Part shown: in pieces, positions 157 through 31,500 of the stretch | Numbering within the stretch: the stretch's first letter is position 1 | Layout: each line of letters begins with the position of its first letter | IMG/VR virus record: IMGVR_UViG_3300032304_001168 | Reading direction: 5' to 3' (one strand) | DNA: 64,000 bases | From: a virus | Notes under the pieces: model-generated | Databases searched by the model: none | Told to the model about the DNA's origin: nothing | Seen by the model: the letters and a program-made list of their open reading frames with translations, nothing else | Made by a program: the position numbers and the translations under genes

Positions 157-157
157 T

Positions 158-2830: not shown

Positions 2831-2848
2831 ATTGTTTAATTTTTAAAA

Positions 2849-3064: not shown

Positions 3065-3097
3065 TTGTATAATTTTTTAGTTTTTTTACATACACAT

Positions 3098-3174
3098 AAC
3101 AACAAATATAAGAAATAAATTTTGATTTATCTATTTTTTATAGGTAAAATTTACTTCTCATATTTGCAACCGTT
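3098..3174. repeat. attC-like hairpin site (array 1)
   Basis: AAC-AA-CAAATATAAGAAATAAATTTT...AAAATTTACTTCTCATATTTG-CAACC-GTT; 21-bp arms with 2 mismatches. Confidence 0.75.
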
Positions 3175-3436: not shown

Positions 3437-3441
3437 TTGTT

Positions 3442-3615
3442 TTAATTTTTAGAACACTCAAATATTATTTCAATTTCATCTCCGTGGGTTTGAGTATCAA
3501 TTGCACCCACCATTGTAAGTCCACATTGATACTCCATTTCCCATACGTGAAGAGAATTGTCCTCTCGTTTTATTTCACACCCACATTTTGGACAATTATC
3601 AAATTCAATTTTCAT
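3442..3615 (-). CDS. small Zn-ribbon-like hypothetical protein
   Basis: likely start MKIEFDNCPKCG at 3615 (ORF track extends to 3687); CxxC motif. Confidence 0.55.
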   Translation of the reverse strand: MKIEFDNCPKCGCEIKREDNSLHVWEMEYQCGLTMVGAIDTQTHGDEIEIIFECSKN

Positions 3616-3865
3616 TTTGTGATTCAGGTTCAACATTGTTTTCCAATTCACTTGGGTCAACAACTGAAAATCCAAGTTCTTGTCCACCTAGGGTAACTTT
3701 CAACTCATTTTCTAATTGTTCGTTTTCAGTTAATTTTGCTTGATATTCTTTCAATTTTTGTTCCAACAATTGTGTGTATTGTTTTTGGAATTTTTTCTTT
3801 TCTGTTGCAATTTTTTCATTTCTTTTTGCAACTTTTTTTTTGTGTTCTTTAGTTTTCTTTCCCAT
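3605..3865 (-). CDS. basic coiled-coil hypothetical protein
   Basis: MGKKTKEHKKKVAKRNEKI...; 86 aa. Confidence 0.7.
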   Translation of the reverse strand: MGKKTKEHKKKVAKRNEKIATEKKKFQKQYTQLLEQKLKEYQAKLTENEQLENELKVTLGGQELGFSVVDPSELENNVEPESQNEN

Positions 3866-3877
3866 CTGTAATATTAA

Positions 3878-4117
3878 TTATTTGTTTATTTTATTTATAA
3901 GTTTAACCCATCCCAATCCATTACAATAAGAATATCCAGCATCTTTGGCCTTCATTCTACATTTATCATTATCATTTTGAAATTCTTCTGGAGCGAAATT
4001 AACCCCCCATTTAATAATGGTGTCTTGTCCATCCATTTCAGCAATATCTTGTTCTGATGTTAGATAATGAATAAGAGTATCATTATTACCTTTCATTGTG
4101 TATTCATAAACTATCAT
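3878..4117 (-). CDS. hypothetical protein
   Basis: 79-aa ORF downstream of the promoter at 4154-4182. Confidence 0.65.
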   Translation of the reverse strand: MIVYEYTMKGNNDTLIHYLTSEQDIAEMDGQDTIIKWGVNFAPEEFQNDNDKCRMKAKDAGYSYCNGLGWVKLINKINK

Positions 4118-4153
4118 TGTCTTATAAATTTTAAATTGTTAAACATTTAAGAT

Positions 4154-4182
4154 AATATAGAAAATCAACCTTGGATTGTCAA
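4154..4182 (-). promoter_or_regulatory. putative promoter TTGACA-N17-TATATT
   Basis: minus strand TTTGACAatccaaggttgattttcTATATTAT in an intergenic gap. Confidence 0.65.
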
Positions 4183-4201
4183 ATGGTGTGATATAATGAT
4201 T

Positions 4202-5038
4202 TCATTGAGGTTTAACTCTTTTAATAATATCTTTCATTCTTGAGAATACTTCCATACCAACAGGAAATGACATCAATGAAATTAAGAATTGATTGATATA
4301 AGCATACATTGATATTGCCTGACCTTGAGTCATTTGGAAATTGAAATTGGTAAATATTATTAAGGATCCCACCAAGAATATACTTTTTGTTATGTTCAAT
4401 GATGCCCAATTTCTACCTTGTAATGTTGATTGTAATATTATTACTCTTGCTCTACGTTTATAAAATGTCTCAATTACTTCATCGTCATTTGATTCCATTG
4501 CACGAGTTTTTTGTTCGTAGTGGGTATGTTCAACTTTTGTAACCTGGTCAATCTTACTATAAAAAATATAAACAATTATTATGATTGGTAAGATACAACA
4601 CATCACAATTAAACCTGTAATCCAACTCTGATAGAATATAAAAAATAAACTACCAAATAAACTCATAAATGACCATAAGAAATAATAAAGTCCATGTTCC
4701 AAGAAATTTATAACATAGTTGGATAAATCAGTTCTTGCAACTTTAACTGAGGTGTCAGCATCTTTATTATTCTTTAAGAATTTAAAAATTAAATCATTAT
4801 AAATTTTGGTATATATCTTGGTGTCAAATACCATTCTTCTATACATAAAAAAATTATGTAATAACTCTATAATCAAGAATACAAATAACCAAACATAATT
4901 TTTATTCAACAATCCATCAATTGCTTTTCCTAGAATAAAAGGCTCAACTAAAAACAATAGTTGAGCTATGAATATGTAAAAGTATATCATTAATAAAGAA
5001 AACTTATATTCCTTTATTATCCCATAAATGTATTTCAT
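4202..5038 (-). CDS. standalone ABC-transporter six-transmembrane domain protein
   Basis: multiple TM helices, LVEPFILGKAIDGLL, RRMVFDTKIYTKIY; no nucleotide-binding domain. Confidence 0.75.
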   Translation of the reverse strand: MKYIYGIIKEYKFSLLMIYFYIFIAQLLFLVEPFILGKAIDGLLNKNYVWLFVFLIIELLHNFFMYRRMVFDTKIYTKIYNDLIFKFLKNNKDADTSVKVARTDLSNYVINFLEHGLYYFLWSFMSLFGSLFFIFYQSWITGLIVMCCILPIIIIVYIFYSKIDQVTKVEHTHYEQKTRAMESNDDEVIETFYKRRARVIILQSTLQGRNWASLNITKSIFLVGSLIIFTNFNFQMTQGQAISMYAYINQFLISLMSFPVGMEVFSRMKDIIKRVKPQ

Positions 5039-5042
5039 TAAT

Positions 5043-5165
5043 CTAAATCTTATTTTGAATTTTCAATTTTTGATAAGTTTCTTCTGTTATATAACCAGTT
5101 TCACCATCTGGTGCCATTATAATATAACCATTTTCCAATTCTTTGACAACTACAAATGTATTCAT
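5043..5165 (-). CDS. 40-aa hypothetical protein
   Basis: ATGA overlap with the thyA stop; MNTFVVVKELENGYIIMAPDGETGY...; read manually. Confidence 0.5.
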   Translation of the reverse strand: MNTFVVVKELENGYIIMAPDGETGYITEETYQKLKIQNKI

Positions 5166-6010
5166 ATTGCTAACTCTAATTTTGAATTAATTTTAGTTAT
5201 ACCACTCATATTGTGAATCTTAAAATCATCTATAGTATAATCATAGAAGTTTTTATCAGTTAATAACTCAATGAATGGATGATTTTGTTTAATAGGTTCT
5301 TTATTTATCAACTCAGTCACCGCATCAAAATGTCTATCGTAAATATGTAAATTACCAACTAAATGACAAAATTTTCCTAATCTATATCCACAATGTCCTG
5401 CAACCATCATTTGTAGTGCAACATATTGGATTTTATTTATGTATCCAGCAACCAAGTAGTCATTTGACCTTTGGTATAAAGTTAAATCTAAAATATAATC
5501 GCCATTAACTTTTCTTACATGGAATTCAGCTAAAAATGCACAAGGATGAAGTCCATCACTTTCAATCAAATCTGATTCTTGATAAAGATTTATGATATGT
5601 CTTCTTGAAAATGGATTATTTTTCACTGAATCTAAAACTTTATTCATAATATCCCACTTCTTAACAGTTGCACCATATCTTAATCCTATAGTATCGTCAC
5701 CTACATTCCATTCATCCCACCAATTAATACCCATATCACGAGCAACTTGTAATGAGGATGTTTGTTTTTGGTAAATCCATAATATTTCTTTAATACCAAT
5801 TTTGATTGCCGTTGGTCTTAATGTGGTTATTGGAAATTCACCTTTTGAAATATCATATTCCTCATAGACCTGAGTGATAAATTTGGTATGTGCTGGTGTT
5901 CCATCCTCATATTTTGGTCTAGGATTCTCATCCCAAGAACCCTCTGACATAATTTTGGATATATTTTGGGTATAGTACTTATCAGCTTTGTTCATTTTAT
6001 TCATATTCAA
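5162..6010 (-). CDS. thyA: thymidylate synthase
   Basis: FPITTLR, NPFSRRHII, catalytic LHPC, YQRSND, HIYDRH. Confidence 0.95.
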   Translation of the reverse strand: MNMNKMNKADKYYTQNISKIMSEGSWDENPRPKYEDGTPAHTKFITQVYEEYDISKGEFPITTLRPTAIKIGIKEILWIYQKQTSSLQVARDMGINWWDEWNVGDDTIGLRYGATVKKWDIMNKVLDSVKNNPFSRRHIINLYQESDLIESDGLHPCAFLAEFHVRKVNGDYILDLTLYQRSNDYLVAGYINKIQYVALQMMVAGHCGYRLGKFCHLVGNLHIYDRHFDAVTELINKEPIKQNHPFIELLTDKNFYDYTIDDFKIHNMSGITKINSKLELAI

Positions 6011-6314
6011 TTTCGAATGTGTTGGGATTAATGTATTTTATTCTTTTACCTCCTGTTAAATCAACTATCTTATCATCAGGTATTCTACTTTCAATAATGG
6101 TATCTTTTAATTCCTGCGGTACATCAGGATTATTTAATATTTCATTACGCTTTTCTTCATGCTTACGTGCTAGTTCAGTACCGCATTCTATTAATTTATC
6201 TAGTTTGTTCATTTTTTTTAATCCATTTGATTTTAATTGGAGTGGCTGCATCCCATTGAGAAATGCAGTAGTGTGTGGATGTTTCCCAACTAACCCATTC
6301 GTATTGTTTATCAA
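5997..6314 (-). CDS. hypothetical protein
   Basis: ORF in a tightly packed minus-strand run; start uncertain. Confidence 0.55.
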   Translation of the reverse strand: MINNTNGLVGKHPHTTAFLNGMQPLQLKSNGLKKMNKLDKLIECGTELARKHEEKRNEILNNPDVPQELKDTIIESRIPDDKIVDLTGGKRIKYINPNTFEIEYE

Positions 6315-6323
6315 TGTTGTTCA

Positions 6324-6647
6324 TTATATTTTATTTTTAATGTAACCTTCTATATCGTTTATACATTCTCCAAGTGTTTGCCAAAAGTGAGATGGTAAAT
6401 TTGATAGAGAAACACCTCTACCACTATCAAGTATTATAATGTGTTCTTCAAGTTCTTTCTTAAATTCTATCAAATTTATTAAAGTGTTTGTTAAAGTGTG
6501 TTCTTCATTCATTTTAATCTTCTTTTCATTATTCATATATAATTGTGGATTATTTTCTAAAATGGTAGCAATTGCCCCCACTATTTGTTTTGGTCTAAAT
6601 GAAATTTTCCAATCGCATTCTTCTGCAACTTCATCTACCCACTCCAT
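6324..6647 (-). CDS. hypothetical protein
   Basis: 107-aa ORF in a minus-strand run. Confidence 0.6.
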   Translation of the reverse strand: MEWVDEVAEECDWKISFRPKQIVGAIATILENNPQLYMNNEKKIKMNEEHTLTNTLINLIEFKKELEEHIIILDSGRGVSLSNLPSHFWQTLGECINDIEGYIKNKI

Positions 6648-10990: not shown

Positions 10991-11797
10991 TTATTTTTTA
11001 TGTTTATTTAAAAATTCATTTATTTCTTGTCTTGTAACATTAATTCCTTTATGACCTAACTCTTCGATATATTTACTACCTAATTCGGATGGAATTAACA
11101 TTGAACGAAGTGCCACAGAAAAATCACCATCTTCAGCTCTTTGTTTTTCTAAAAAAAATAAGTTACTATAAGGATTAATTGTCTCTATATGGTTTGGATG
11201 AGTTAATTCTACCTCATCATTTTTTTTGATTTCAAACACCCCTCTAATCATTACACCCCTTTCACCTTTAATTTGATAATCTTGTGGTGAATCCAAAATG
11301 TTATCCAATGTTTGATGTAATTTTTTTCTTATACTTTTATATCTTTCATTTTCAGCATCCTCAATCATACTAGGACTTCCAAGACCATAAATTGCTTCGT
11401 CTTGTAATGTTTCAGGTTCAAACTCTATGATAATTTTCTTTTTTAATGTCAATGTTGATGGGTCAACTATTGCAGGAGTGATTGATGCACCATCTTTAAC
11501 CAAATCATTAATTTTATTTGGGTCAAACATTTCAGGTGTTAAAAAAATTGAGTGGAGATAACATTTACCTTTAAAAGATGTGTTGTCATCTACTTTAAAA
11601 GTTTGAGTCATCTTTGTTTTCCCATTTTCATCTTGAAACACTGGTTCTTTTATGATAATTAATTCATCACAATTTTGCAATTCCTCACATTCTTTTAATA
11701 AATCAATCATTACTGATAATTCATCTCCTCTGATAATTTCATCAGATAATTCATTTCCTTTGATAATTTTATTCTTAATTAATTCTTTTAATTTCAT
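10991..11797 (-). CDS. hypothetical protein
   Basis: 268-aa ORF. Confidence 0.75.
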   Translation of the reverse strand: MKLKELIKNKIIKGNELSDEIIRGDELSVMIDLLKECEELQNCDELIIIKEPVFQDENGKTKMTQTFKVDDNTSFKGKCYLHSIFLTPEMFDPNKINDLVKDGASITPAIVDPSTLTLKKKIIIEFEPETLQDEAIYGLGSPSMIEDAENERYKSIRKKLHQTLDNILDSPQDYQIKGERGVMIRGVFEIKKNDEVELTHPNHIETINPYSNLFFLEKQRAEDGDFSVALRSMLIPSELGSKYIEELGHKGINVTRQEINEFLNKHKK

Positions 11798-13170: not shown

Positions 13171-13366
13171 TTATATCTTCAAATGAATTTATTGCAAATT
13201 TAAGAAAAGGTTTTGGATTATCCAAATCAACAAATGAATATTCATCCTTAACCACATCATAAATTCCAAATCCGTGATTCTTAATTGACTCCCCATAGTT
13301 CTGTTGGATTGTTGAACCCACTTGAATTATTGGTATTTTTCTTTTTATTTTAATTTTTCTATCCAC
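13139..13366 (-). CDS. Mre11/SbcD/gp47-like nuclease, C-terminal fragment
   Basis: IIQVGSTIQQNYGE..HGFGIYD matches the GS-x-QQ-x-GE segment that follows GDIH in this family. Confidence 0.8.
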   Translation of the reverse strand: MDRKIKIKRKIPIIQVGSTIQQNYGESIKNHGFGIYDVVKDEYSFVDLDNPKPFLKFAINSFEDIIDGKEKLTNA

Positions 13367-14211
13367 TCTGTTATGTTTTTATATTTTTTTTGATTTTTGG
13401 GTAAGAAAAAATTCATTTCATATTTTAAATTATTTTCTTTACAAAATTTTATAGTTTCTTGTATTTGGGCTTTAATTCTTTCCTCTTCTAATATGAGTCC
13501 TTTAATTTCTTCTAATACTTTTTTTCCATCCTTGTACAAAATTAAAAAATCAGGTAAATAATTTCTTTTTAATCCTCCAAAATCATATTTGATAGATATT
13601 TTGTGTTTTTTTGTCCAAAATATAACTTTTTCATCCTCATTAAGTTCTATCATTCTTTTTTGCTCCCAAGATGAATGGTAAAATTCATTTTCATTTGTTG
13701 TAGTGTTTAATATAAACCCTCTTTTATGATTACCATTTCTTTCATTTTCACTTTCTTTTATTAATCTTTCAATATTTTTTAAAGAAATATTTTCCCTAAA
13801 TTCTTTAGTATGCCAATCCATAGAACCATTAGATAATCGGTGTCTGTCAAAAAAAATTAAATGTTTCTCTAATCTTTCTTTTTTTCTCCAACTATCTTTA
13901 ACTTTTTCTTTTATCTTTTTTTTAGCATCATCAGTATGTTTAAACATGCCAGGTTTCCTATTACCAAAATTACCATTTTTTTCCCCTAATTGTGAGAATT
14001 TTTGCCACTCAACTTGACACAATCTACTACAAAATTTTTTTTTGGAGTTAGGTAATTTTATAAAATTATTTGTACATCCACTAAATTCACAATTTACTTC
14101 AATTTTGATTTGTTTCTTTTCACATTGACCACAAATTTTAGAGCAATATTTTTGTTTTTCCCTTCTAGGTTTGAAATCTAAATTACAACAATCGCATTTT
14201 TTATTTTCCAT
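13345..14211 (-). CDS. homing endonuclease (Cys-rich Zn motifs, NUMOD3-like, TnsA-N/PD-(D/E)XK-like C-terminus)
   Basis: GEKNGNFG..KHTDDAKKKI; YHSSWE...YLPDFLI...EEIKG; likely start MENKKC at 14211 (ORF track 14247). Confidence 0.8.
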   Translation of the reverse strand: MENKKCDCCNLDFKPRREKQKYCSKICGQCEKKQIKIEVNCEFSGCTNNFIKLPNSKKKFCSRLCQVEWQKFSQLGEKNGNFGNRKPGMFKHTDDAKKKIKEKVKDSWRKKERLEKHLIFFDRHRLSNGSMDWHTKEFRENISLKNIERLIKESENERNGNHKRGFILNTTTNENEFYHSSWEQKRMIELNEDEKVIFWTKKHKISIKYDFGGLKRNYLPDFLILYKDGKKVLEEIKGLILEEERIKAQIQETIKFCKENNLKYEMNFFLPKNQKKYKNITEWIEKLK

Positions 14212-14253
14212 ATTTATATTTTTAAGTATAAATATAAATATCACCAAAAAACA

Positions 14254-14898
14254 CTAAATCACAATTTCCCAACCTTTTTTCAAATAAAAATCTAAATCTT
14301 TTTCATCAATTTCTATTTCTCTTTCTAAATAAATTGTTTGTCTGCGATGTATATCCCCACATAGAACGATATCACATCCCTCAAATTTACTCACCTCATA
14401 TCCTGTTTCAAACTTATATCCAATGTCTGTATATAACCCTATAATAGGTCCGTGAAACAATCCAATTTTAAGGTTATTAGATTTCTCAATTGTTGGGGGA
14501 ATATTGTGTTCAAATAAAGAATATACAACCCAATCAATATTCTCATCAACATATACACCTCTATCTTTGTAATAGACAATGTTATCATTATTCATTGATT
14601 CAATGATGGGGGTTAATGTATCCAATCTTGATAAATTGTTCTCAAGCATATCATGATTTCCAACAATGATTATTGTTTTTGCAATCTTGGAACATTTATC
14701 TAATGTCCATCTAACCATTTCAATAAGTTCTGGGCTGACTTGGTTTTTACTATGGACTAGGTCGCCACTGAATACCAGTCTATCAGGTTTAATCTCTTTG
14801 AATTGATTAAACATATCAATCAATATTGATTTGTATAAATCGTGGTCTTTTATTAATCTCAAATGTAAATCAGAGAAGTGACAGATTGTTTTTATCAT
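14254..14898 (-). CDS. Mre11/SbcD/gp47-like metallophosphoesterase nuclease, N-terminal fragment
   Basis: motifs HFSDLH, GDLVH, GNHD, FHG, GDIH. Confidence 0.9.
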   Translation of the reverse strand: MIKTICHFSDLHLRLIKDHDLYKSILIDMFNQFKEIKPDRLVFSGDLVHSKNQVSPELIEMVRWTLDKCSKIAKTIIIVGNHDMLENNLSRLDTLTPIIESMNNDNIVYYKDRGVYVDENIDWVVYSLFEHNIPPTIEKSNNLKIGLFHGPIIGLYTDIGYKFETGYEVSKFEGCDIVLCGDIHRRQTIYLEREIEIDEKDLDFYLKKGWEIVI

Positions 14899-14915
14899 TT
14901 CAGTTTTTGTTTTGA
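14866..14915. repeat. 50-bp direct repeat, copy 1 (mre11 5' end); copy 2 at 15085-15134
   Basis: identical TAAATCAGAGAAGTGACAGATTG...CAGTTTTTGTTTTGA. Confidence 0.9.
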
Positions 14916-15044
14916 TTTAATAATATTCACCAATTCTTCTTTTATTTCGTTTTGAATATCCTCATCAATATTTCCCCACCAACCATCAAAACCACCTCTA
15001 TCACATAGAGCATCAATAATTTCATTTACAATTTCTTTTTCCAT
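14895..15044 (-). CDS. 49-aa hypothetical protein
   Basis: MEKEIVNEIIDALCDRGGFDGWWGNIDEDIQ...; stop overlaps the mre11 ATG (ATGA). Confidence 0.65.
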   Translation of the reverse strand: MEKEIVNEIIDALCDRGGFDGWWGNIDEDIQNEIKEELVNIIKSKQKLK

Positions 15045-15054: not shown

Positions 15055-15086
15055 TTTTTCTTCCATCAAATACAACAATCATACTA
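15055..15086. repeat. 32-bp direct repeat of the Dam-like methyltransferase 3' end; other copy at 18235-18266
   Basis: identical TTTTTCTTCCATCAAATACAACAATCATACTA. Confidence 0.9.
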
Positions 15087-15231
15087 AATCAGAGAAGTGA
15101 CAGATTGTTTTTATCATTTCAGTTTTTGTTTTGAATTTCGTAATAGTTTCCCATTTTTACCTCTTAAATCATTGATTATTTGAGGTTTTAAAATAGGTGT
15201 TGATATATTATAGTTATACTCAATTAAAAAA

Positions 15232-15378
15232 TTATTTTGAGTTATATAATATATTCCATTCAGTATATGTATTTGATAATAATTCTTCTATTGTAATCCC
15301 AAATCTTATACAATCACCTAAACATATTTTGTAAAAATTCACACTTCTTTCGTTTATTATATATTCTGAAAATGTCAT
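15232..15378 (-). CDS. 48-aa hypothetical protein (cassette 15213-15423)
   Basis: MTFSEYIINERSVNFYKICLGDC...NSK*; flanked by GTTATACTCAATTAAAAAATTATTTT / AAAATAATTTTTTAACTAAGTATAAC. Confidence 0.5.
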   Translation of the reverse strand: MTFSEYIINERSVNFYKICLGDCIRFGITIEELLSNTYTEWNILYNSK

Positions 15379-15420
15379 ATTTGTATTTTTAATTTGTAAA
15401 ATAATTTTTTAACTAAGTAT

Positions 15421-15466
15421 AACAAAGTGTAAAAAACATTAAAACTATTTTTTACACTCAACCGTT
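15421..15466. repeat. attC-like site (short loop)
   Basis: AAC-AA-AGTGTAAAAAA..CATTAAAACTA..TTTTTTACACT-CAACC-GTT. Confidence 0.75.
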
Positions 15467-15474
15467 ATGTGTAA

Positions 15475-15792
15475 TTAAACAGAGAAACCCTCGTTAATCA
15501 AATATTTTGTTATTGAATGATGGTTGCTCAATGGTCTGTGTTCAATTGAAATATGTCCTTTGTTGTTTTTCCAAGTCCAAGTATGGTCAACTTCTAATTC
15601 TGAATTTACAGATAAACCATATTCAATTGTATGATAGTTATCAGATACAACACAATCTTCTACTTTAAATACAGCAATAATAAAATCTTTTTCAGGTGTC
15701 CATTCAACTTTACCAGCATTACAAGGTTTTCCGATAATCAAAGAGTATATCTGATTAATGTTTTCTATTGTTAAATCTTTTATCGTTTTCAT
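15475..15792 (-). CDS. hypothetical protein (cassette 15464-15823)
   Basis: likely start MKTIKDLT at 15792; arms GTTATGTGTA / TACACATAAC. Confidence 0.7.
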   Translation of the reverse strand: MKTIKDLTIENINQIYSLIIGKPCNAGKVEWTPEKDFIIAVFKVEDCVVSDNYHTIEYGLSVNSELEVDHTWTWKNNKGHISIEHRPLSNHHSITKYLINEGFSV

Positions 15793-15820
15793 AAATTTTT
15801 CGTTTAAATTAACTACACAT

Positions 15821-15906
15821 AACAAGGTGTATATGTAATTTTTTTACAAAGGTACGAATAAGTTTTGACATTTCCAAATAAAAAACTACATATACACCCA
15901 TACGTT
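15821..15906. repeat. attC-like site with a promoter in its loop; near-identical to 16522-16606
   Basis: AAC-AA-GGTGTATATGTAATTTTTT...AAAAAACTACATATACACC-CATAC-GTT. Confidence 0.8.
15847..15878 (-). promoter_or_regulatory. Bacteroidota primary-sigma promoter (-33 TTTG / -7 TAnnTTTG)
   Basis: minus strand TTTG-N20-TACCTTTG pointing into the cassette gene. Confidence 0.75.
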
Positions 15907-15922
15907 ATAAGCAATATTATTT

Positions 15923-16165
15923 TTATTTTGAGTATCTATTTTTAAAATCCTCAAATGCTTCTAAAATTGTGTTTCCCACACCATAGTTCACATGTTCCCA
16001 TTCTTCTTTCATAAAGTGATGTGGGTCATATTGCCACTCTTCGTTTCCTTCAAGTGAGTTTACACAATCAGCATCACAACATGTTTCTACAATAGCAAAT
16101 TTACCGTGTCTCATGTGAACTATGGTCATTGGGTAAATGTCTTCAATTTTGTTTATATTCTTCAT
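15923..16165 (-). CDS. hypothetical protein (cassette 15904-16214)
   Basis: arms GTTATAAGCAATATTATTTTTATTTT / AAAATAAAAATAATACAGCTTATAAC. Confidence 0.7.
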   Translation of the reverse strand: MKNINKIEDIYPMTIVHMRHGKFAIVETCCDADCVNSLEGNEEWQYDPHHFMKEEWEHVNYGVGNTILEAFEDFKNRYSK

Positions 16166-16211
16166 AATTTTAAGTTTTTTAAATCGGTAAAATAAAAATA
16201 ATACAGCTTAT

Positions 16212-16257
16212 AACAACAAATATATTGCATTAAAACGACAATATATTTGCAACCGTT
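16212..16257. repeat. attC-like site (short loop)
   Basis: AAC-AA-CAAATATATTG-CATTAAAACGA-CAATATATTTG-CAACC-GTT. Confidence 0.8.
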
Positions 16258-16278
16258 ATGTGTAATAAAAAATAACTA

Positions 16279-16482
16279 TCAAACCTCGTTTCCATCATCA
16301 AAGATTGTAAAACACGATTTGTCTGATAAAGTCACCTTATATCCAACATATCCACCATCTGCAAAAATGTGCAAGTCTGTTATCCATTCATCAGTTGCAC
16401 CTTTTTCATCTAATTTGCTTTGTATTTTCACTCTTGCTGCATCGTGTTTTACAAAGTCTAATGTTATTCTATTTGCCCACAT
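16279..16482 (-). CDS. hypothetical protein (cassette 16255-16524)
   Basis: arms GTTATGTGTAATAAAAAATAACT / AGTTATTTTTTACATACACATAAC. Confidence 0.7.
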   Translation of the reverse strand: MWANRITLDFVKHDAARVKIQSKLDEKGATDEWITDLHIFADGGYVGYKVTLSDKSCFTIFDDGNEV

Positions 16483-16521
16483 ATTATTAAGTTTAGTTTA
16501 AGTTATTTTTTACATACACAT

Positions 16522-16606
16522 AACAAGGTGTATATGTAATTTTTTACAAAAGTACGAATAAGTTTTGACATTTCCAAATAAAAAACTACATATACACCCA
16601 ACCGTT
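16522..16606. repeat. attC-like site with a promoter in its loop
   Basis: near-identical to 15821-15906; minus-strand TTTG-N20-TACTTTTG at 16547-16578. Confidence 0.8.
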
Positions 16607-16634
16607 AGCACCAATACTACGAAAGTGCTTCGAT

Positions 16635-17252
16635 TTAAATTTCGTTTGGATTTTCATAGATTATTACTGGGATTTTTTTAATTTTTAATCTTTTTGCAGC
16701 TTCCCATCTATGATGTCCATCTAATATACCAAAATCATAATCAAGTAATATTGGTGGTAATTCATCACCATTTTTTAATTTCTTAATTATGTTCAATATA
16801 TTTTGTTCTTCTTGTTTTTCAGTTCCATATATTCTCGAATCATTGGTATCAATATATTTCAATTTACTCAAATATCTCCCAATCTCAATACCTCTCGTAT
16901 CACTCCACAAATATTTTTGTTTATTAACCAAATCTGTGTCAGTATTATACACCAAATCTGGTTTCTTTTCTTTTGGTTGTTTTAATTTTGGTTCAATTTT
17001 TATACCTTTTTTGGTTTCAACAAAATTGAAAAGATTTATAATATCACTTGGATTATCTTCACCAAATATTTTGCTAAATTGTTTATTATTATGCTCAACG
17101 GCACGATTCACATCATTGTATGCAGTCTCCAAATCTTTATAGTATCTATCTTTAAAAGATGAATACCACCCATACATTTTTTTTACATCTAAATCTTGGC
17201 TTTCATTAAGATATTCTCTTATTGTAGTTGCTATAAATTTTCTCAATTCCAT
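16635..17252 (-). CDS. ParB/Srx-like domain protein (cassette 16604-17320)
   Basis: LPPILLD..GILDGHHRWEAAKRLKIKKIPVII; N-terminal MELRKFIATTIREYLNE; arms GTTAGCACCA / TGGTGCTAAC. Confidence 0.8.
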   Translation of the reverse strand: MELRKFIATTIREYLNESQDLDVKKMYGWYSSFKDRYYKDLETAYNDVNRAVEHNNKQFSKIFGEDNPSDIINLFNFVETKKGIKIEPKLKQPKEKKPDLVYNTDTDLVNKQKYLWSDTRGIEIGRYLSKLKYIDTNDSRIYGTEKQEEQNILNIIKKLKNGDELPPILLDYDFGILDGHHRWEAAKRLKIKKIPVIIYENPNEI

Positions 17253-17317
17253 GTTCTTTTACTTTATATATAAATATTCCAAAATTAAATTTTTGCTAAA
17301 CAAACCGTACTGGTGCT

Positions 17318-17403
17318 AACAAGGTGTATAAGAAAGTTTGCTATCAATATTTGTGGTAATTTGAGAGTTCATCTAAGCAAACCTTCTAATACACCCAACC
17401 GTT
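17318..17403. repeat. attC-like site
   Basis: AAC-AA-GGTGTATAAGAAAGTTTGCT...AGCAAACCTTCTAATACACC-CAACC-GTT. Confidence 0.78.
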
Positions 17404-17419
17404 AGCAGTAATATTGTGG

Positions 17420-17659
17420 CTACTTCCCAATTGGTCTATTACAAGTTGCACAGATATAACTACCATTCATTAAATAACATTGAGATTGCTGACAGCCACA
17501 ATACATACTGCTAACATCGGCTATACGCAAGTTTTTTGCTTCCGTTAGTCGGTTAATAACATTGTTTGCCTCTATCAACATTTCAATCAATTTGTCTTTT
17601 TCTATCATTTGATACATCTCTACTTTTTCAGAGTGTGTCATTTCAATTACTTGCATCAT
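17420..17659 (-). CDS. hypothetical protein starting inside an attC-like loop, with a Cys-rich C-terminus
   Basis: reads through the site arm and core as LRIADV-SSMYCGC. Confidence 0.7.
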   Translation of the reverse strand: MMQVIEMTHSEKVEMYQMIEKDKLIEMLIEANNVINRLTEAKNLRIADVSSMYCGCQQSQCYLMNGSYICATCNRPIGK

Positions 17660-17718
17660 ATATTTTAATTTTAGTGTTTCAAATTCGCAAAAAACCTGAC
17701 GTATAGCCGAGAACCGTT
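17513..17718. repeat. attC-like site with a long coding loop
   Basis: AAC-A-TCGGCTATACGCAAGTTTTTTGC...GCAAAAAACCTGACGTATAGCCGA-GAACC-GTT. Confidence 0.72.
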
Positions 17719-17980
17719 ATAGATAATAAGCATCCAACACACTTTCAATATAACCTATTGATATGTGTATTTTAACTAAATCATCATATGTTTTTATACG
17801 TTCAAAAAATTCCTCTTTATTCAACCACTCCACATAGAAACCACCTTCATGTAAATTCATACAATATCCATCATATTCCGTATAAAAACTATCTAACAGC
17901 TTACTATCTATAACATCAGATATATGTAATTTTTCATTACTCTTATCTAAGTTTTGTTCTAAATTTTTATCTTCTTTCAT
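17717..17980 (-). CDS. hypothetical protein starting inside an attC-like loop
   Basis: reads through the site as LHISDV-IDSK; stop TAA lies in the TATAAC core. Confidence 0.7.
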   Translation of the reverse strand: MKEDKNLEQNLDKSNEKLHISDVIDSKLLDSFYTEYDGYCMNLHEGGFYVEWLNKEEFFERIKTYDDLVKIHISIGYIESVLDAYYL

Positions 17981-18023
17981 CTTATTAAATTTTGTGTTAA
18001 AACTACATATATCTGTAACCGTT
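17912..18023. repeat. attC-like site with a coding loop
   Basis: AAC-AT-CAGATATATGTAATTTT...AAAACTACATATATCTG-TAACC-GTT. Confidence 0.75.
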
Positions 18024-18031
18024 ATAAAACA

Positions 18032-18682
18032 TTATAAACGACCACCCCACTCAAATCTAACATATTCAACTTTAAAATCAACATCGTAAATCTCTTTTAG
18101 TAAATTTACAGCATATTGTTCATAACTACAATTCTTATCATATTCTAAACGATGTTGATTATCGTTTACTTCCATTGTCATATGTTCACCTTCGAAACTA
18201 TGACTTTCAATAAATTTGATTTCCATATTTTTAATTTTTCTTCCATCAAATACAACAATCATACTATCTTTTGTACCACTTTGTACTTTACCCTTTGAAT
18301 TTACAGGATAATAAAAATTACCATCATTGTCAACTTTCCCAAATTTAATCCTCCCCCTTACAAATTCAATTTCAGTCGCATTTGGTTTAATATAATCGTG
18401 AAATAACTTTGTGGAGGTGGAAACTGGTATCAAAAATACACAAACTTTTCCCTTCTTCATCTCCTCAATCCCTTTCTTAATAAAGGCCTCCTTTAACTTC
18501 TGACTATATGGGGGATTTATGAAAGTTGACATCCCCCATTCAATATTTAAACCATCAATATCAACATCCTTTTCATTATATGGACAAGGGTCAAAATCAA
18601 ATTTAAACCTCTTATTTAACTCCTCATAAAATTCTGGGGGTGTTGCATAATTATCATCATTATTAATGTGAATCTTTTTCAT
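18032..18682 (-). CDS. phage Dam-like DNA N6-adenine methyltransferase fused in frame to an unrelated about 64-aa C-terminal ORF
   Basis: YATP, FDFDPC, NPPY, FVRGRIKF; after SMIVVFDGRK the frame continues into MEIKFIESHSF... Confidence 0.85.
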   Translation of the reverse strand: MKKIHINNDDNYATPPEFYEELNKRFKFDFDPCPYNEKDVDIDGLNIEWGMSTFINPPYSQKLKEAFIKKGIEEMKKGKVCVFLIPVSTSTKLFHDYIKPNATEIEFVRGRIKFGKVDNDGNFYYPVNSKGKVQSGTKDSMIVVFDGRKIKNMEIKFIESHSFEGEHMTMEVNDNQHRLEYDKNCSYEQYAVNLLKEIYDVDFKVEYVRFEWGGRL

Positions 18683-21300: not shown

Positions 21301-23373
21301 ATGAGTTGTTTTTGTCCATTGGGTTATACCCCAACCATAGATTATGATGATTGTATTAATACCTTAACTGCCGCGACAAGTGGGGGTACATATTTTTATA
21401 CCGCAACAACTGGGAGTCAAAGTGGTTCATTTTGTAATTTAGGTACAATATTTTATGAAGATATAACAAATCTTTCATTCCCAATTACCAATTCAGGAAC
21501 AACAACATCTGCATTCACTCAAAATGGTACATTACTTTTTAATACAGAGTTCTTAGTAGATAATAGTGGAAGGGTTTTAAATATTCAAGCTGGGGGTCAA
21601 GGTGGTGGTTATTCTGGTTGTTTTGGCGGGATATCCCCGTACTATGGTCCACCAAACTTACAAAATTCATTGTGGGGTTCTGGTAGTACAACATCTGGTA
21701 GATTAAATGTTGCAGGTATTTTTGCAACCACTAATCCTAATCCTATTAATGAATGGATTGGTTTTTCATATTGTTTAGACATTCCTATCAAAGGAACTTA
21801 TTTTATTGGATTTGCGGCTGATGATTTAACTAGAATAAAAATAAATGGTGATTTAATATATGAAACATCCACAATAAATTATTGTAATTCAATACCCCAA
21901 ACATTGAATACTAATACTTGGACAATACTCCCATTTGCGTTTAACTCTGGGTTAAATATTGTTGAAATGGAAGGTTTAAACCTTGGGTCTAGTGCCGCAT
22001 TTGCCGCTGAAATATATTCAGGTTCAGTTGCAACACTTAGTGCTTATACCACAACAATACAATTAACTGCAGATACATTATTTAGTACTTTAGATTTTAT
22101 TGGTCAAGATATCCCCTTAACAAGTTCAATAACTGGTGGTACTTCTAATACTGGTTATACTTGTCCAAGTGGTTATACATTATACACTTGTAGTGGAACA
22201 CCATATTGTATTCAAATTGATAGAGTTGGTTTAATTAAATTCTGTATTAGTGATACTGGATTAGGTTATGATGATAATTTTTCGTTATCAGGCACATACA
22301 ATTCAGAACCATATTGGACTGGTGATACTAGCGGTAGATTTATTTATTTAACCTCAAGTGGTTATTGGTGTTTATCAGATTCTTTGGGGGGTACTTGTCT
22401 TTTGGAAGGTGCTTATCCATGCCCATCAACTTGTCCTGATTTATGTGATTCTTATTTCAATGAAGGTATTTGTCCAACACCAACTCCAACACCTACTGTT
22501 AATTGTTCCGTATTAGACTTTAACGCAATTTTTGATTGTGAGGTAACTCCAACACCAAGTATAACACCAACTAACACACCAACGCCAACTGTAACTCCTA
22601 CACCAAGTATTAGTGAACCTTGTGGGGGTAGGGCGGTTAATGTAACAATTACTGGTTATACACCAACACCAACACCGACCCCATCAATAACACCATCAAG
22701 TACACCTCAAATAACAAGACCTTGTAGTGTCTCTGGAAATGTTGTTTTTAATACAGTCCTTGGACTAATTGAATGCCCTAGTAGTAAAAAATTCATTGAT
22801 TGTGAAAATGGTAATTTATATTACGCATCCAATGCTCTTCCTTTACCTTCAGGTGGTACACTATCTCAATTATCAGTTTTCAAAGCTAATGTTGATGGTA
22901 TTTCAAGATGTATAACATATGTTGGTATAGACTTAACAATTAATGGTATGAATATTATTGAATTGGTTGATGGTCCTTTAGATTTTGATGCGGATTGTTC
23001 AGTTTGTGTTCCAAATGTAACTCAAACACCTACACCAACTCCAACACCATCAATTACTCCAACAATTACACCAACTCCAACCGCATCAGCTCTTGTTGGT
23101 TATTATTTATTCCAAAGATGTAACACAAATTCATATGTTATACAAACATTACCTGGTCCTACATCAGTAATTAACCAAGTATTTAGTTTAACTGATTATC
23201 CGTATTCAAATGAATGTTGGAAATATATCTCATATTCAAGTAGTTATCCATCATTACCATTAGGTTCAACATCGTCATTCTTATCAGGTAATAGTTTTCA
23301 AAGTTTGGGTGTTTTTTATTATTCAGATTGTAGTGAATGTATTGCAATAGTTGGGGATTCTGGTGAGTTATAA
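21301..23373 (+). CDS. Cys-rich fibre/virion protein with a PA14-like domain and PT linkers
   Basis: [19 protein letters not shown]; several (PT)n tracts. Confidence 0.7.
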
Positions 23374-27056: not shown

Positions 27057-27758
27057 ATGTCATATTTGAACCCTGGTTATTTACCTGTTAATAGTTGTAG
27101 TGTTTTTACTGTCGCACCAATGATAGTAAAATGTAATGTTACTAATGTTACTGGTAAAGAAGGTTCTGCTAATGGTTCTATAACTTTAGGGATAACTGGA
27201 GGTACAACACCATATACTATAACTTGGACTTATCCAAATGGTGTAACACTACAAGGTTCTCAAACTATTGATAATTTATCCGTTGGAACTTATATCGCGT
27301 CAGTTACTGACTATTATGGTGATTTTATGGTAACTACTAGTTGTACTGTTGGCGCACCTACAACAACAACTACCACTTCAACCACGACATCACCACCACC
27401 ATATACTGAATATAGTTTTTGTTATACTATTTTTATAAAGGATATTAAAGGTAATATTTTAGATGTAATTCAATTTAATTTTATACCAAATACATATATA
27501 AATGGTTATCCTAGTTGGATTTCTGACCCTGGTAATCAAGAAATAATATACTATGAACCAACAATACCAAATAATGGTGGTTGGTCTTTATCTGGTTCAC
27601 CTTCAAGTATTATAACGAGTAATAATATTGTCTCTTTTAATTCTGAACCCTCATACCCACCTATTGCAGGTATAAACCCCAACTTCACTGCTTGGACTGT
27701 ACTTATAGCTGGAAATCCAAATAGTTCAGTAACGGCTTCAGAAGGTTTATGTTTTTAA
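27057..27758 (+). CDS. SprB-repeat-like virion protein with a poly-Thr linker
   Basis: NGSITLGITGGTTPYTITW...NLSVGTYIASVTD; TTTTTSTTTS. Confidence 0.7.
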   Translation: MSYLNPGYLPVNSCSVFTVAPMIVKCNVTNVTGKEGSANGSITLGITGGTTPYTITWTYPNGVTLQGSQTIDNLSVGTYIASVTDYYGDFMVTTSCTVGAPTTTTTTSTTTSPPPYTEYSFCYTIFIKDIKGNILDVIQFNFIPNTYINGYPSWISDPGNQEIIYYEPTIPNNGGWSLSGSPSSIITSNNIVSFNSEPSYPPIAGINPNFTAWTVLIAGNPNSSVTASEGLCF

Positions 27759-28511: not shown

Positions 28512-31500
28512 ATGGGATACATTTTAAAAAATACATCAGGTTTAATAAATACGAGAATCACCGACACAGGTAGATTGAAAATCTCACAAGGTAATTTTAA
28601 TATTTCTTATTTCCAACTTGGAGATAGTGAAGTTTCATATAATGCGTTACCACAATCAACTTACAATCAATTTAATAATTTCATACTTGAACCTAGTTTT
28701 AATGCTCAAAACTCAGCAGGTGTTCCACAATCAAATAAAGAAAACATAAAATATCCATATTACGTGGATGGTAGTGATGGGAACACTTATGGTATTCCAT
28801 TTATGTCTTCTATTGTTGAACCCGTGTATAATAGAGCAACACCAAGAGGATTTTTTACAGGTATATCAGTTGATGATGTCTTTAATTGGAGTGCTAAAAC
28901 AAATAATACTCACGTTATTAATTCTAACTATGTTGTGGATATGAGTACATTACTAGGTACTAATACTATTGTAGTTACTGACAATTCTTGTAACGATAAT
29001 CCAATAAGAGGTATACAAGCTGGAGATATTATAACAATATACTACGATGGGAATGGATTGAATGATTGTCAATGTACTACGGCCACAACAACAACAACTA
29101 GTACTTCGACTACTACTACAACAACAAACCCATGTGTCACACCAATTCCAACAACTACAACTACAACAACTACTTGTTCGTTTATAAATCCTTGTTGTCC
29201 ACCACCAGTAGTTGATTGTTTAGTAAATGTATCATCTTGTTATTCAATTCTTACATATAGAGTAATAGCTGCTTGTAATAATACTTTAACTTTGGATAGA
29301 CCTGTTCCAGATTTTTCATACTTGTATTCTAGTTGTTTTGCAAGAGTTTTAGTTTATCCCCCAATTATTACTGAAATTTATGATAGTATAACACCAAGTA
29401 ATCATTGGTCGAATAACGTTATTAATTATGAATCAGTTTGTTCTACGGATGAATTTGATGTGAAAATATGGAATATGAATATTCCTTGGTCTGAAACACC
29501 AGCAGGTATTGATTCAAATGTTTATAAGGATTATACTAAATTCGGTTCAATTAATTATTTAGGTTCTAAAGAATATTTTGGTTACGCCTCAAGTAGTGGA
29601 CAAACTGATACAAGTTCAGTTTACTATTATAATTCATTTGATGAAAAAATAATAGTTAAACCTGAAGAACAAAAAACCATTGCAATAGTTCATTATACAA
29701 ATCAAACTATTGATTTATTTTATGGTGAAAAATTCGCATTAGAACCTTTTGATGAAACTGCTGAAGATACCACAGGACAAGCAAGAAATTTTAGAATTGA
29801 TTTACCTTGGTTAATGTGGCATAAAAATCCAAATTGTTGTAATGGTCAATCATTCTATATTGACCCTCCAGGATTTGATGATTTGAATCTATATACTATT
29901 CATTATTTAGAGTCAACCAAAAACTCGGATATGAATACCCCAGGTATTCGTTATTATCACTTGTGGGACACTAATCCAAATTTGGATGGTTATCCTAGTA
30001 GAGTTGGTAAAGTGTTCCCAGATAGTAAAATAATTATCTTTGATGATGAAGAAATCATTGCCGCTATGTCTTATAAGTCTAATAGGAATTGGACTTTGCC
30101 AGCACCAAAAGTTTCGTTGATAACACCTAATATATGTGGGTTAGATAATAATTCAGTCGAGGGTATTTTAACGGGTAATAGTGAATATCTTTATGTGACT
30201 TATAGATTATCGAATAATTTTGGATTTACAAATTCATTACATTGTAATTACTGCCAAAGTATTCAAGGACCAAATGTTTCTTGCAATCCTATTACATCTC
30301 AAAATGTTAGTGTGAGATTTGGTGATGAATTTTTATGTTTATCGACCGCTAATACATCGATTACCCCTTGTTGGTATTCTGGTTTCACATTTTGGGGTTT
30401 ACCACAACCAGAAACATCCCCTAATACTTATATCGCCTACCCATTTATTAACACAGAGCAAAATTTGAATGGTTATCCAATATTTAGAAGTCTTGTTGAT
30501 GAGGGTGCAATTTATAATATTTTTTATGATGGTAATGATTGGATTTTTAGAAACAACAATTATAGTGAGGATGAAATAATTAATTTCACGAATGGTGGAT
30601 TAATAGGTGACTTCACAATTGATTTTGAAGGAGGTATAACAGGTTATACTCAATGTAATTACAATCCTTTATTGTGTGTTACTTCGTGTGTTGAAAACGA
30701 ATCTTGTGTAATATCAACATACACCAATACTTTGAGTGGGTCAACAAACCTATATTTATCAAATTTTGATGTAACTAGTAGGTTGGTTTATTATAATTCT
30801 ACTTGGGAGATTTACTCAGCGGATACAAGAATTGCTATTTTAACAGGATTAACAAATAACGATATACCAATAGGTACATGGATTCCTGATGTTGTTCCTT
30901 TAACTGGTTTAACAACAAGTTTATTTGAAAGTTGTGGAAGTATTACTTGTAGTAGTTACTCAGCAAGTACTACGGCAAATAGTACAACAATTAAAGTTGT
31001 TGATTGTAGTTTTATTATTTCAGATGAAACAATTATAGTTTCAGGAATTACATATAGTGGTTGTGCAATAACTTTGGATGGTTCTTTAGACTCTGCAATT
31101 GTTCAAGTCTCAGGGGAAACTACGTATGGAAGTTACACTGGAACTTGTCCAACATATTCAGCCGTTACCGCAAGTACTATTTGTTCCGGGTTATGTAATG
31201 TAAATAATGGATTTATTGCTAATAAGTTTGAAATAATTTGTCAAAAAGTGGATGACACCGGAAGACCTATTTCTGATGAATGGAAAATCATTGATTTTAC
31301 AGACCAATTAAGTGGTTCAACAATAAATGGTTTCTTAACCCAATCAGGATTAACTGGTAACACTTTTGTAATTACTCAAGATTTATATGATAATGCCGAT
31401 ATATACGATTTAAATGATTATATTGATTTAACACCTATTGGTTTTACTGGTCATCAATTGAATTTTGGGGATGAATATTACTTCTATGGTAATGTTGAAA

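Follow-up and report, generated by a model that had tools for sequence, protein, structure and literature searches.

Integrons are the textbook bacterial gene-capture system, and the insertion of their integrase IntI is used to hold the extrahelical bases of attC. The Xer/dif system uses a double-stranded site of ~28 bp with two inverted arms and a 6-8-bp spacer, while in the CTX phage (IMEX) Xer enzymes act on a hairpin formed by the single-stranded attP, with one strand exchange and a simple double-stranded target. In that phage, the enzymes are the host XerCD, the target is dif and the whole phage genome integrates. In T4-type phages, the PeSLs combine promoter and terminator in conserved sequences, which homologous recombination exchanges between genomes or sites (Arbiol et al. 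2010, PMC2839356). Furthermore, phage sites have been treated as integron attC usable by the bacterial IntI1, and it has been proposed that phage CALINs are serviced by the IntI of the host (Qi et al. 2023, PMC9892861).

Here, we analyzed a window of 64,000 nucleotides of viral DNA (IMG/VR record IMGVR_UViG_3300032304_001168), which contains two arrays of small genes with hairpin sites. We consider, with a probability of about 0.78, that both arrays are mobile gene-cassette rows of an integron-like site-specific recombination system in large Bacteroidota phages. The cassette system seems to be a phage counterpart of the integron that has hardly been described so far, with the enzyme gene deleted here.

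Hairpin sites and cassettes of the two arrays

Array 1 (window 15213-18024) contains seven hairpin sites, and an eighth one is found at 3097-3175, in array 2. All eight are located on the minus strand, which is the gene-sense strand, and show perfect or near-perfect arms of 12-20 nt in the form x'-TAAC-G(GTTG)-arm-loop-arm'-T(T)-GTTA-x. Sites 1 (15420-15467) and 3 (16211-16258) are attC-like hairpins of the 48-nt class, and sites 4 (16521-16607) and 5 (17317-17404) are attC-like hairpins of the ~87-nt class. Site 4 has 20-nt arms and its loop contains a Bacteroidota-type promoter motif on the gene strand (TTTG-N20-TAnnTTTG), which is also present in the loop of the near-identical hairpin of site 2 (15820-15907). 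The attC-like site 6 (17512-17719) has 12-nt arms and a 172-nt loop with the ATG of ORF c5, while site 7 (17911-18024), also attC-like, shows TAAC, GGTTA, 17-nt arms, a 65-nt loop with the ATG of ORF c6, and GTTA. Site 8 of array 2 is an attC-like hairpin as well. In 50 Markov shuffles of the window, no site with arms of at least 10 nt was obtained on either strand, and AACCGTTA shows seven occurrences versus 1.3 expected. The pairing of the arms is not independent evidence, because the site finder demanded complementary arms. The features of integron-type attC (imperfect hairpin, AAC/GTT cores, unpaired spacer and variable loop) are present in these sites, and Rfam contains no family matching them. 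A set of 365 unique sites shows 219 distinct arm sequences and 162 distinct boxes; their structure is kept and their sequence is not.

All cassettes are located on the minus strand. The distal cassette of array 1 (18021-18234) is truncated on its 5' side and fused in frame to a Dam gene; it includes the ORF 18032-18226 and the box GTTTTATAAC, and the Dam homology of the fused ORF ends at residue 149. In the relative L091, the homolog of this ORF stands alone as a small ORF and is likewise followed by GTTTTATAAC. ORF c6 (17717-17980; boxes GTTATAGATA / TATCTATAAC) encodes 87 aa of no family, and ORF c5 (17420-17659; boxes GTTAGCAGTA / TACTGCTAAC) encodes 79 aa, whose Cys-rich C-terminal 28 aa lie within a 115-bp cassette. 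The 205-aa product of ORF c4 (16635-17252; boxes GTTAGCACCA / TGGTGCTAAC) shows a C-terminal ParB-like nuclease domain. ORFs c3 (16279-16482, 67 aa) and c1 (15475-15792, 105 aa from ATG) show the boxes GTTATGTGTA / TACACATAAC, which are also those of the cassette of array 2 (2585-3096), with the ORFs 2849-3064 and 2609-2830. ORF c2 (15923-16165, 80 aa; boxes GTTATAAGC / GCTTATAAC) has a 46% identical homolog among the cassettes of the L091 array that adjoins the recombinase, where the complementary box pair is another one. The last cassette of array 1 contains ORF c0 (15232-15378, 48 aa) and shows an inverted repeat of 26 nt, 92% complementary. Finally, the ORF 3172-3436 encodes 87 aa with a lipoprotein-like N-terminus and ends in TACCGCTAAC, the box that precedes site 8. 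As no partner box is found upstream, this ORF represents the distal unit of array 2.

Every gene is flanked by inverted repeats of 10-26 nt, and those around single cassettes reach 18-26 nt (15213-15238/15398-15423, 15904-15929/16189-16214 and 16255-16272/16507-16524). When the six variable bases after GTTA were compared with the reverse-complemented box that precedes the next TAAC, five cassettes matched in 6/6 and two in 5/6 positions; random box pairing gives 6/6 in 1.3% of draws and at least 5/6 in 5%. In the relatives, the mean box match of 312 non-redundant cassettes was 4.88/6, versus 2.33 for the boxes of the same hairpin and 2.28 for random pairs. The pairing extends over ~15 nt. At its position 11, 181 of 235 cassettes have G.T on the gene strand and A.C pairs are essentially absent; therefore, the structure is strand-asymmetric. 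The cassette-boundary signature of integrons, in which the outer boxes pair across the cassette, is present. An earlier note, made from the letters of the window alone, had described the seven sites of array 1 and claimed that their boxes pair across the gene and usually not across their own hairpin. All seven sites were found where it had placed them, and the box claim holds in the window and in the 312 cassettes; its site layout needs one correction, since the loops of sites 6 and 7 include the starts of the downstream ORFs.

Cassette turnover and the linked recombinase in relatives

The ends of blocks with at least 90% identity between contigs cluster at TAAC: 23 of 113 distinct left ends are found at offsets -3 to 0 and 15 of 107 right ends at +3/+4, with only two block ends at GTTA and a chance expectation of ~0.03 per offset. 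Similarity between the window and L001 begins exactly at the terminal TAAC, and L001 and L002 show flanks with 95-99% identity and entirely different cassettes. Dam is a cassette bounded by sites in four relatives (L005, L006, L011 and L018). Only one indel of a whole cassette was found between contigs; as it has identical 48-nt hairpins on both sides, homologous recombination explains it equally well. The outer limits of array 1 are not at cores; they are at direct repeats of 32 and 53 nt.

Relatives encode a tyrosine recombinase of 266 aa, Xer/IntI-like, whose gene is located just downstream of the array. All 45 distinct viral homologs with at least 1.5 kb of upstream DNA have same-strand sites upstream, and these loci contain 272 same-strand sites, none on the opposite strand and six downstream. 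Among bacterial homologs, mostly 32-56% identical, same-strand upstream sites were found in only 5 of 66. The 256-kb contig G004 has only one tyrosine recombinase, 300 bp after its sole array, and the complete 69.8-kb genome G010 contains one recombinase-adjacent array and a second array elsewhere which includes Dam. No tyrosine recombinase was found in G003, a 219-kb contig with sites that is 88% complete. Against TIGR02249 (integron integrase), the recombinase scored 161 bits in two stretches, with a cut-off of 265; NF040815 gave 195 bits (cut-off 220) and XerC/XerD ~160 bits. Among solved structures, 4a8e is the closest. Where VchIntIA (2a3v) has 82 residues, the enzyme has 34, and it thus lacks the IntI-specific insertion. 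As judged from its amino acid sequence, the enzyme is Xer-like and not an IntI.

The arrays of relatives end in a conserved junction, TAAC-TATtATATATA, located 45-55 nt before the recombinase start (44 distinct loci), and no dif-like site was recognised at it. G004 has a single copy of this motif, and the gene strand of the window carries it solely where the two arrays end. Thus a putative attI-type site adjoining the recombinase gene at the array end is present in relatives, although the function of the junction in recombination is inferred. In the window, the attI-like junction of array 1 (15190-15216, minus strand; TAAC and then TATAATATATC) and that of array 2 (2562-2588, minus strand) each show 10 of the 11 conserved positions. 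The junction of array 2 is followed by an SbcC gene, not by a recombinase gene. At array 1, a stub of 11 codons (15119-15154, minus strand; MGNYYEIQNKN and a stop) is located 58 nt after the terminal TAAC, and can be compared with the start of one recombinase subgroup, MKKTNYYEICNQKLK. A mosaic junction (15055-15137, minus strand) consists of two copied segments in direct contact, one of the SbcD 5' region (15085-15137, equal to 14866-14918) and one of the Dam 3' end (15055-15086, equal to 18235-18266); it is a scar of homologous or illegitimate recombination around the array. As the recombinase of array 1 is reduced to this stub, the platform is integrase-less and decayed: the window has kept the arrays, and the enzyme gene was deleted by short-homology recombination. 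For the system to be active today, a recombinase would have to be supplied by another part of the ~290-kb genome or by a co-infecting phage.

The earlier note had reported no tyrosine recombinase in the window, which was borne out over the 64 kb, and had proposed a search for a linked IntI/XerC-like recombinase in relatives, where a candidate now stands at all 45 viral loci. A conserved gene order without gain, loss or reordering at the cores, which it regarded as refuting, is not what L001 and L002 and the breakpoints at TAAC show. Its integron-like interpretation gains support from the boundary signature, the turnover and the linked recombinase; recombination, single-strandedness and circles have not been shown.

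Proposed mechanism and alternative explanations

On the gene strand, a cassette begins with G and the hairpin core, continues with GTTA, box x and one small ORF, and ends with box x' and TAAC. Recombination between two positions, each between TAAC and G, would release a circle in which x'-TAAC meets G-core-GTTA-x to form one long imperfect hairpin. This hairpin is predicted to have an outer stem of ~15 bp with the fixed G.T pair, an asymmetric internal loop (GGTTG versus T or TT) and an inner stem of 10-20 bp, with a loop that would make the total length of the site ~48, ~87 or ~125 nt. The simple terminal site TAAC-TATtATATATA, before the recombinase gene, would be the insertion point of the circles. 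It is inferred that the linked recombinase is the enzyme for these sites and that cassettes pass through circles; by analogy with integrons, we also infer that the gene-sense strand may fold and react in single-stranded form, with the exchange of one strand. Only TAAC is common to the attI-like and the attC-like sites, which by inference does not suffice for the exchange of two strands across an overlap of 6-8 bp. According to Smyshlyaev et al. 2021 (PMC8138268), integrons cannot function without the IntI insertion, and its absence from the linked recombinase counts against this explanation. We give slightly better than even chances to a self-contained phage integron, in which a compact enzyme of the Xer type, devoid of the IntI insertion, recombines hairpins folded from single-stranded DNA and trades small accessory genes. 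At the same level of confidence, its users would be large Bacteroidota phages and some Bacteroidota chromosomes, with cargo such as methyltransferases and nucleases.

Alternatively, the arrays could be ordinary integron material, with cassettes from bacterial integrons serviced by the IntI of the host. The AAC...GTT cores and overall attC architecture of the sites fit this, as does the lack of a recombinase in the window. The CALIN criterion (at least two same-orientation attC-type sites without an integrase nearby) is fulfilled, by seven sites within 2.6 kb and one at 3.1 kb in recombinase-free 64 kb, only if the sites count as attC-type. P12002L_attC1, of Polaribacter phage P12002L, is a member of the present site family predicted as attC by HattCI; however, it was the sole phage site that did not recombine with IntI1, in the only published test of a family member (PMC9892861). 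Furthermore, the arrays of relatives are linked to a recombinase that is encoded by the phage, is not an IntI and has a conserved junction of its own; the ORF is opposite to the classical cassette direction in 301 of 312 cassettes, and the cassette genes are orphans of phage type whose homologs occur in other phage arrays. We therefore regard a bacterial origin of this kind as unlikely.

Another explanation is that the hairpins are regulatory, like PeSLs, that homologous recombination shuffles the genes, and that the neighbouring recombinase is incidental. The phage encodes a UvsX-like recombinase and SbcCD, scars of homologous recombination are found at the flanks of array 1, and PeSL mini-circles are documented (PMC2839356). 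Identical hairpins occur in different contexts, with the one clear indel lying between identical hairpins, and the loops of sites 2 and 4 carry a good promoter motif. However, this motif is present in only 16 of 126 mid-size and 2 of 175 long sites and, with 219 arm sequences in 365 sites, the definition of a PeSL (strong promoter and conserved terminator stem-loop) is not met. Such diverse arms are a poor substrate for homologous exchange, which also leaves unexplained the box pairing, the breakpoints at one position, the recombinase linkage in 45 of 45 loci and the fixed junction. This explanation is equally improbable.

The box pairing could also serve the RNA: the 5' and 3' ends of the transcript, with G.U at position 11, would pair so that the transcript is processed or stabilised, and the pattern in the DNA would be a by-product. 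The wobble asymmetry favours the gene-sense strand, which is that of the mRNA, and the boxes lie just outside the ORFs; yet a folded DNA strand of the same sense would show equal asymmetry, and a role in RNA predicts neither breakpoints at TAAC, nor turnover between near-identical genomes, nor linkage to recombinase and junction. As the whole explanation it is very doubtful, although both roles of the boxes could coexist. Small non-autonomous TIR transposons or hairpin-dependent elements of the IS200/IS605 type, with a transposase elsewhere, are hardly credible in spite of the 10-26-nt inverted repeats around each gene and of units that abut a fixed tetranucleotide as IS200/IS605 elements do, given that no Y1 (HUH) transposase (PF01797) was found in five related contigs (~800 kb in total), the repeats vary between units, unlike binding by one transposase, no target-site duplications were seen and the linked enzyme is a tyrosine recombinase.

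If the self-contained phage integron is true, integron-type chemistry arose twice or predates the IntI insertion. If its enzyme works as inferred, phages would have a dedicated route for swapping small accessory genes, which would account for part of the hyperplastic regions of jumbo phages; anti-defence functions are plausible cargo, and Dam-type methyltransferases are cassettes in relatives. The origin of integrons would become testable, and a small new recombinase for single-stranded DNA substrates would be available. The window illustrates a decayed platform of this kind, with arrays retained and the enzyme gene lost.

Comparison with known systems

The integron architecture of hairpin sites, cassette boxes and terminal site is here linked to an insertion-less enzyme and carried by phages. 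Like integrons, especially sedentary chromosomal ones with IntI, attI and attC, the present arrays show one small ORF per cassette, AAC/GTT cores and imperfect hairpins of ~48-125 nt with kept structure and varied sequence, as well as an unpaired spacer between outer and inner stems. In both, the crossover in the core on one hairpin side makes the outer box pair across the cassette, a simple terminal site lies by a tyrosine recombinase gene, and enzyme-less secondary arrays and rapid turnover are found. They differ in that the phage-linked recombinase has 266 aa, is Xer-like without the IntI insertion and remains below the integron-integrase cut-offs. In addition, the ORFs point to the terminal site and recombinase, not away from them (301/312 cassettes), with the hairpin 5' of the ORF; the recombinase is co-oriented with the array, the outer stem has ~15 bp with a fixed G.T versus 7 bp, and the carrier is a phage. 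The classical layout of promoterless ORFs directed away from attI under a common promoter Pc is not fulfilled, and some hairpin loops carry promoters.

The phage CALINs share methyltransferase cargo with this family, which has Dam cassettes in relatives, and P12002L_attC1 (NC_028924 30008-30056), upstream of a DNA methyltransferase gene, belongs to it. However, no cognate phage recombinase, terminal junction or cassette-box rule is described for them (PMC9892861). The hyperplastic regions of large myoviruses likewise contain stem-loops, the PeSLs, between their small orphan genes, with modular shuffling and some promoters in loops, whereas the present hairpins are diverse in sequence, mostly without promoter motif, and show fixed TAAC/GTTA cores, cassette-specific boxes and linkage to a tyrosine recombinase. 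With the CTX phage, the proposed system would share a Xer-family enzyme, a folded single-stranded hairpin, one strand exchange and a simple double-stranded site; it differs in that the enzyme is encoded by the phage and linked to arrays of many small gene cassettes.

Hairpin sites, boxes and gene content

The region 15213-18024 shows small minus-strand ORFs set apart by seven hairpin sites, and 3097-3175 is an eighth site at the head of a second array (2585-3175) with one cassette. All eight sites share the same strand. Read on the gene (minus) strand, a site starts with a box x', TAAC and a G with 3-4 further nt (mostly GGTTG); two complementary arms of 12-20 nt then enclose a loop, and T or TT, GTTA and a box x follow. 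Sites were identified with a rule-based finder checked against shuffles, and none with arms of at least 10 nt appeared in 50 shuffled versions of the window. Their lengths fall into three classes, of about 48, 87 and 125 nt, and no match to the hairpin sites was found in Rfam. The arm sequences are highly varied, with 219 distinct arms among 365 sites, so the conserved element is the structure together with the TAAC/GTTA cores and not the arm sequence. The presence of a Bacteroidota promoter in every hairpin loop was considered and dropped, as the promoter is confined to one hairpin type. In the long-loop sites at 17512-17719 and 17911-18024, the downstream ORF begins inside the hairpin loop and extends over both the 3' arm and GTTA box, so that the recombination site is partly coding sequence.

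The reverse complement of box x, the bases after GTTA, recurs across the gene as box x', in front of the next TAAC. Since the boxes were not used by the site finder, the statistic on them is separate from site detection. Over six variable positions, the boxes of the window match at 6/6 in five cassettes and at 5/6 in two, and the inverted repeats reach 18-26 nt. Among 312 non-redundant cassettes of related contigs, the mean match is 4.88/6 (145 perfect), against 2.33/6 between the boxes on either side of one hairpin and 2.28/6 for random pairs. Both observations of the earlier note, the seven sites dividing small minus-strand genes and the boxes that are complementary across each gene rather than across their own hairpin, were therefore confirmed. 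Box pairing persists to about position 15. At position 11, the gene strand has G opposite T in 181 of 235 cases while A.C pairs are essentially absent, which indicates a structure that is better on one strand, as is likewise the case for the attC sites of integrons.

The cassette ORFs (c0-c6 in the first array) are small orphans; c4 has a ParB-like nuclease domain, and a homolog of c2 with 46% identity is found in the recombinase-adjacent array of the related contig L091, where the box pair is different yet again self-complementary. The gene of the Dam methyltransferase is itself flanked by sites in several relatives. Genes for a baseplate wedge, ribonucleotide reductase, DnaB, a UvsX-like recombinase and SbcCD show that the phage is large and myovirus-like, and the CheckV completeness of the two closest contigs (18% for 52.5 kb and 35% for 102.8 kb) implies a genome of about 290 kb. 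Thr/Pro-rich repeats with a 12-nt period at 22545-23081, 27344-27400 and 29084-29164 are linkers within very large plus-strand ORFs, which probably encode fibre or surface proteins.

A linked tyrosine recombinase and its junction with the array

No tyrosine recombinase was found in the window, as the earlier note had stated, and a search of five related contigs for a Y1 transposase was negative. Three of five related contigs sharing the hairpin contain one tyrosine recombinase each, of 266-268 aa, with the domain PF00589 and a SAM-like N-domain (PF13495). Its best model is XerA/"integron integrase" NF040815 (195 bits, cut-off 220); XerC, XerD and TIGR02249 (integron integrase) reach similar scores, none of which passes its cut-off. 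Among solved structures, the closest are 4a8e, a Xer-like protein of Pyrococcus, and 2a3v (VchIntIA). The RKHRH-Y catalytic motifs are readable in the sequence. The alignment with VchIntIA is split, with 34 residues where IntI has 82, and consequently the IntI insertion is missing; this insertion is incompletely conserved within the "integron-like" recombinase subgroup of Smyshlyaev et al. 2021 (PMC8138268).

In the 256-kb related contig G004, the only array has 11 sites (238349-244567), shares its strand with the only recombinase gene and stops 300 bp short of it. Using recombinase similarity alone, we gathered 80 viral loci (55-100% identity) with 67 distinct recombinase genes, 45 of which have at least 1.5 kb of DNA upstream. 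Same-strand sites were found upstream of all 45 genes, within 1.5 kb in 43 of them. Across the viral loci, 272 sites lie upstream on the same strand and none upstream on the opposite strand, with 5 and 1 downstream. As a negative control, 80 loci from bacteria and archaea, whose homologs are more distant (mostly 32-56% identity), were analyzed: 5 of 66 carry such sites and most have none within 10 kb. L147, L163, L181 and L218 are among the bacterial contigs with sites, and a few such contigs (a Bacteroidales MAG, Niabella, Aquimarina and a Bacteroidota MAG) have arrays obeying the box rule; the system thus extends beyond phages. In L181 (Aquimarina sp.) and L163 (Bacteroidota MAG) the array is downstream of the recombinase homolog and on the opposite strand (convergent), unlike the phage layout. 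The complete 69.8-kb related genome G010 has one array beside the recombinase and a second array elsewhere, which includes the Dam gene; an intact platform thus coexists with an array that, as in the window, is remote from the enzyme.

Two cultured phages with the nearest recombinases (36-41% identity), Cellulophaga phage Ingeline and Polaribacter phage Freya, were rejected as models, as the finder detected no canonical sites; the scan of Freya_10 covered positions 1-6500. The genomes of Freya_1 to Freya_10 (MT732463-MT732472) range between 43,978 and 48,920 bp and their integrase start shifts from 83 to 4180, which suggests that the DNA upstream of this related integrase varies.

At 44 distinct loci, x'-TAAC closes the last cassette and is followed by TATtATATATA, and the recombinase starts 45-55 nt beyond. 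G004, with its 256 kb, has a single copy of the motif TAACTAnnATATAT, located at the array-recombinase junction. The window has only two copies on its gene strand, at 15216 and 2588, where the two arrays end; both match 10 of 11 conserved positions. By analogy, this junction is read as the putative counterpart of attI. Junction and hairpin sites share only TAAC, which would be too little identity for conventional two-strand exchange; by inference, it fits single-strand exchange, as in integrons.

Breakpoints and history of the arrays

The earlier note proposed that the units were assembled by site-specific recombination, with breakpoints between relatives expected at the cores. All collected contigs were compared pairwise, the ends of blocks with at least 90% identity were recorded and duplicate junctions were removed. 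Left block ends fall at TAAC offsets -3 to 0 in 23 of 113 cases and right block ends at offsets +3/+4 in 15 of 107, in line with that proposal; about 0.03 per offset are expected by chance, and only two block ends were found at GTTA. Because block ends pile up at TAAC, the exchangeable unit is inferred to run from TAAC|G through the hairpin core, GTTA, x, the ORF and x' to the next TAAC, so the hairpin moves together with the gene downstream of it. Cassettes have a median length of 304 nt, and the longer ORF is on the gene strand in 301 of 312.

Cassette content also differs between relatives: L001 and L002 are 95-99% identical to the window in Dam and SbcD, yet contain none of its cassette ORFs. 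Between L001 and the window, identity is 97-98% from the SbcD gene as far as the array's terminal ATAAC, directly beyond which the two are unrelated. A whole-cassette indel was not retained as proof of site-specific exchange, given that the only case (L078 versus L064, two related contigs, four cassettes) lies between identical hairpins, where homologous exchange is equally possible. Two sites about 29 bp apart at L001:12361-12389, flanked by the complementary boxes GTTATGTTC and GAACATAAC, look like an 'empty' cassette.

An ATG lies 58 nt past the junction of the first array, which is the expected distance, and opens a reading frame that gives MGNYYEIQNKN before stopping; in one recombinase subgroup the start is MKKTNYYEICNQKLK. 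This recombinase stub leads into duplicated sequence from the SbcD 5' region, which in turn is joined to duplicated sequence from the Dam 3' end. Over 12 nt, the codons for QKLK in the recombinase gene are identical to the end of ORF 14895-15044, from which we infer that this may be the deletion point of the recombinase gene. The second array keeps the junction and the recombinase leader, and SbcC is next. At the distal end of the first array, the homology of Dam to its relatives ends at residue 149, exactly at a 32-nt repeat. In L091, the other 67 residues of the Dam-fused ORF form a small gene of their own, with box GTTTTATAAC after it as in the window; hence the first cassette was cut short and joined to Dam. 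Short-homology recombination thus made the outer borders of the array block, and the cassette system its inner structure.

At 15055-15137, copies of the SbcD 5' region (14866-14918) and the Dam 3' end (18235-18266) directly abut, a junction that would be expected if the Dam-to-SbcD interval had been duplicated in tandem or circularised; L001 shows the same junction at 11026-11126 with different content on either side. The SbcD-like gene is interrupted at 13340-14323 by about 980 bases more than in L001, and homology resumes at 13339. This insert contains a 300-aa ORF (13345-14247) encoding a TnsA-like/PD-(D/E)XK endonuclease and looks like a mobile endonuclease within a core gene.

Comparison with known systems

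The nearest phage precedent for shuffling via stem-loops is the PeSLs of T4-type phages, which involve homologous exchange of conserved promoter-terminator elements. That mechanism does not fit arms this diverse, the boxes, breakpoints at a single position or the linkage to a recombinase.

By analogy, integrons would be the functionally closest known system, with the recombination, its strand and the role of the enzyme inferred. Read on the plus strand of the window, the phage unit shows the layout of an integron cassette, where the crossover falls within CGTTA, beyond the hairpin; the classical cassette, in contrast, has its ORF on the opposite strand. The definition of the integron family excludes the phage system, since its enzyme is without the IntI insertion and its ORFs are inverted. 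The window arrays match the form of CALINs (attC clusters without an integron integrase), which were reported in phages by Qi et al. 2023 (PMC9892861). The primer sequence of P12002L_attC1 from that study corresponds to a site which we found at NC_028924 30008-30056, and P12002L_attC1 was the one site failing with IntI1 (PMC9892861). One member of the phage system had therefore already been seen and filed as attC. No description of the cognate recombinase, the terminal junction or the box rule was found in the literature searched.

The overall reading of an integron-like cassette array is supported. With recombination, its strand and the role of the enzyme inferred by computation alone, the description that fits best is a new variation on the integron principle, represented in the window by two integrase-less arrays on a decayed platform.
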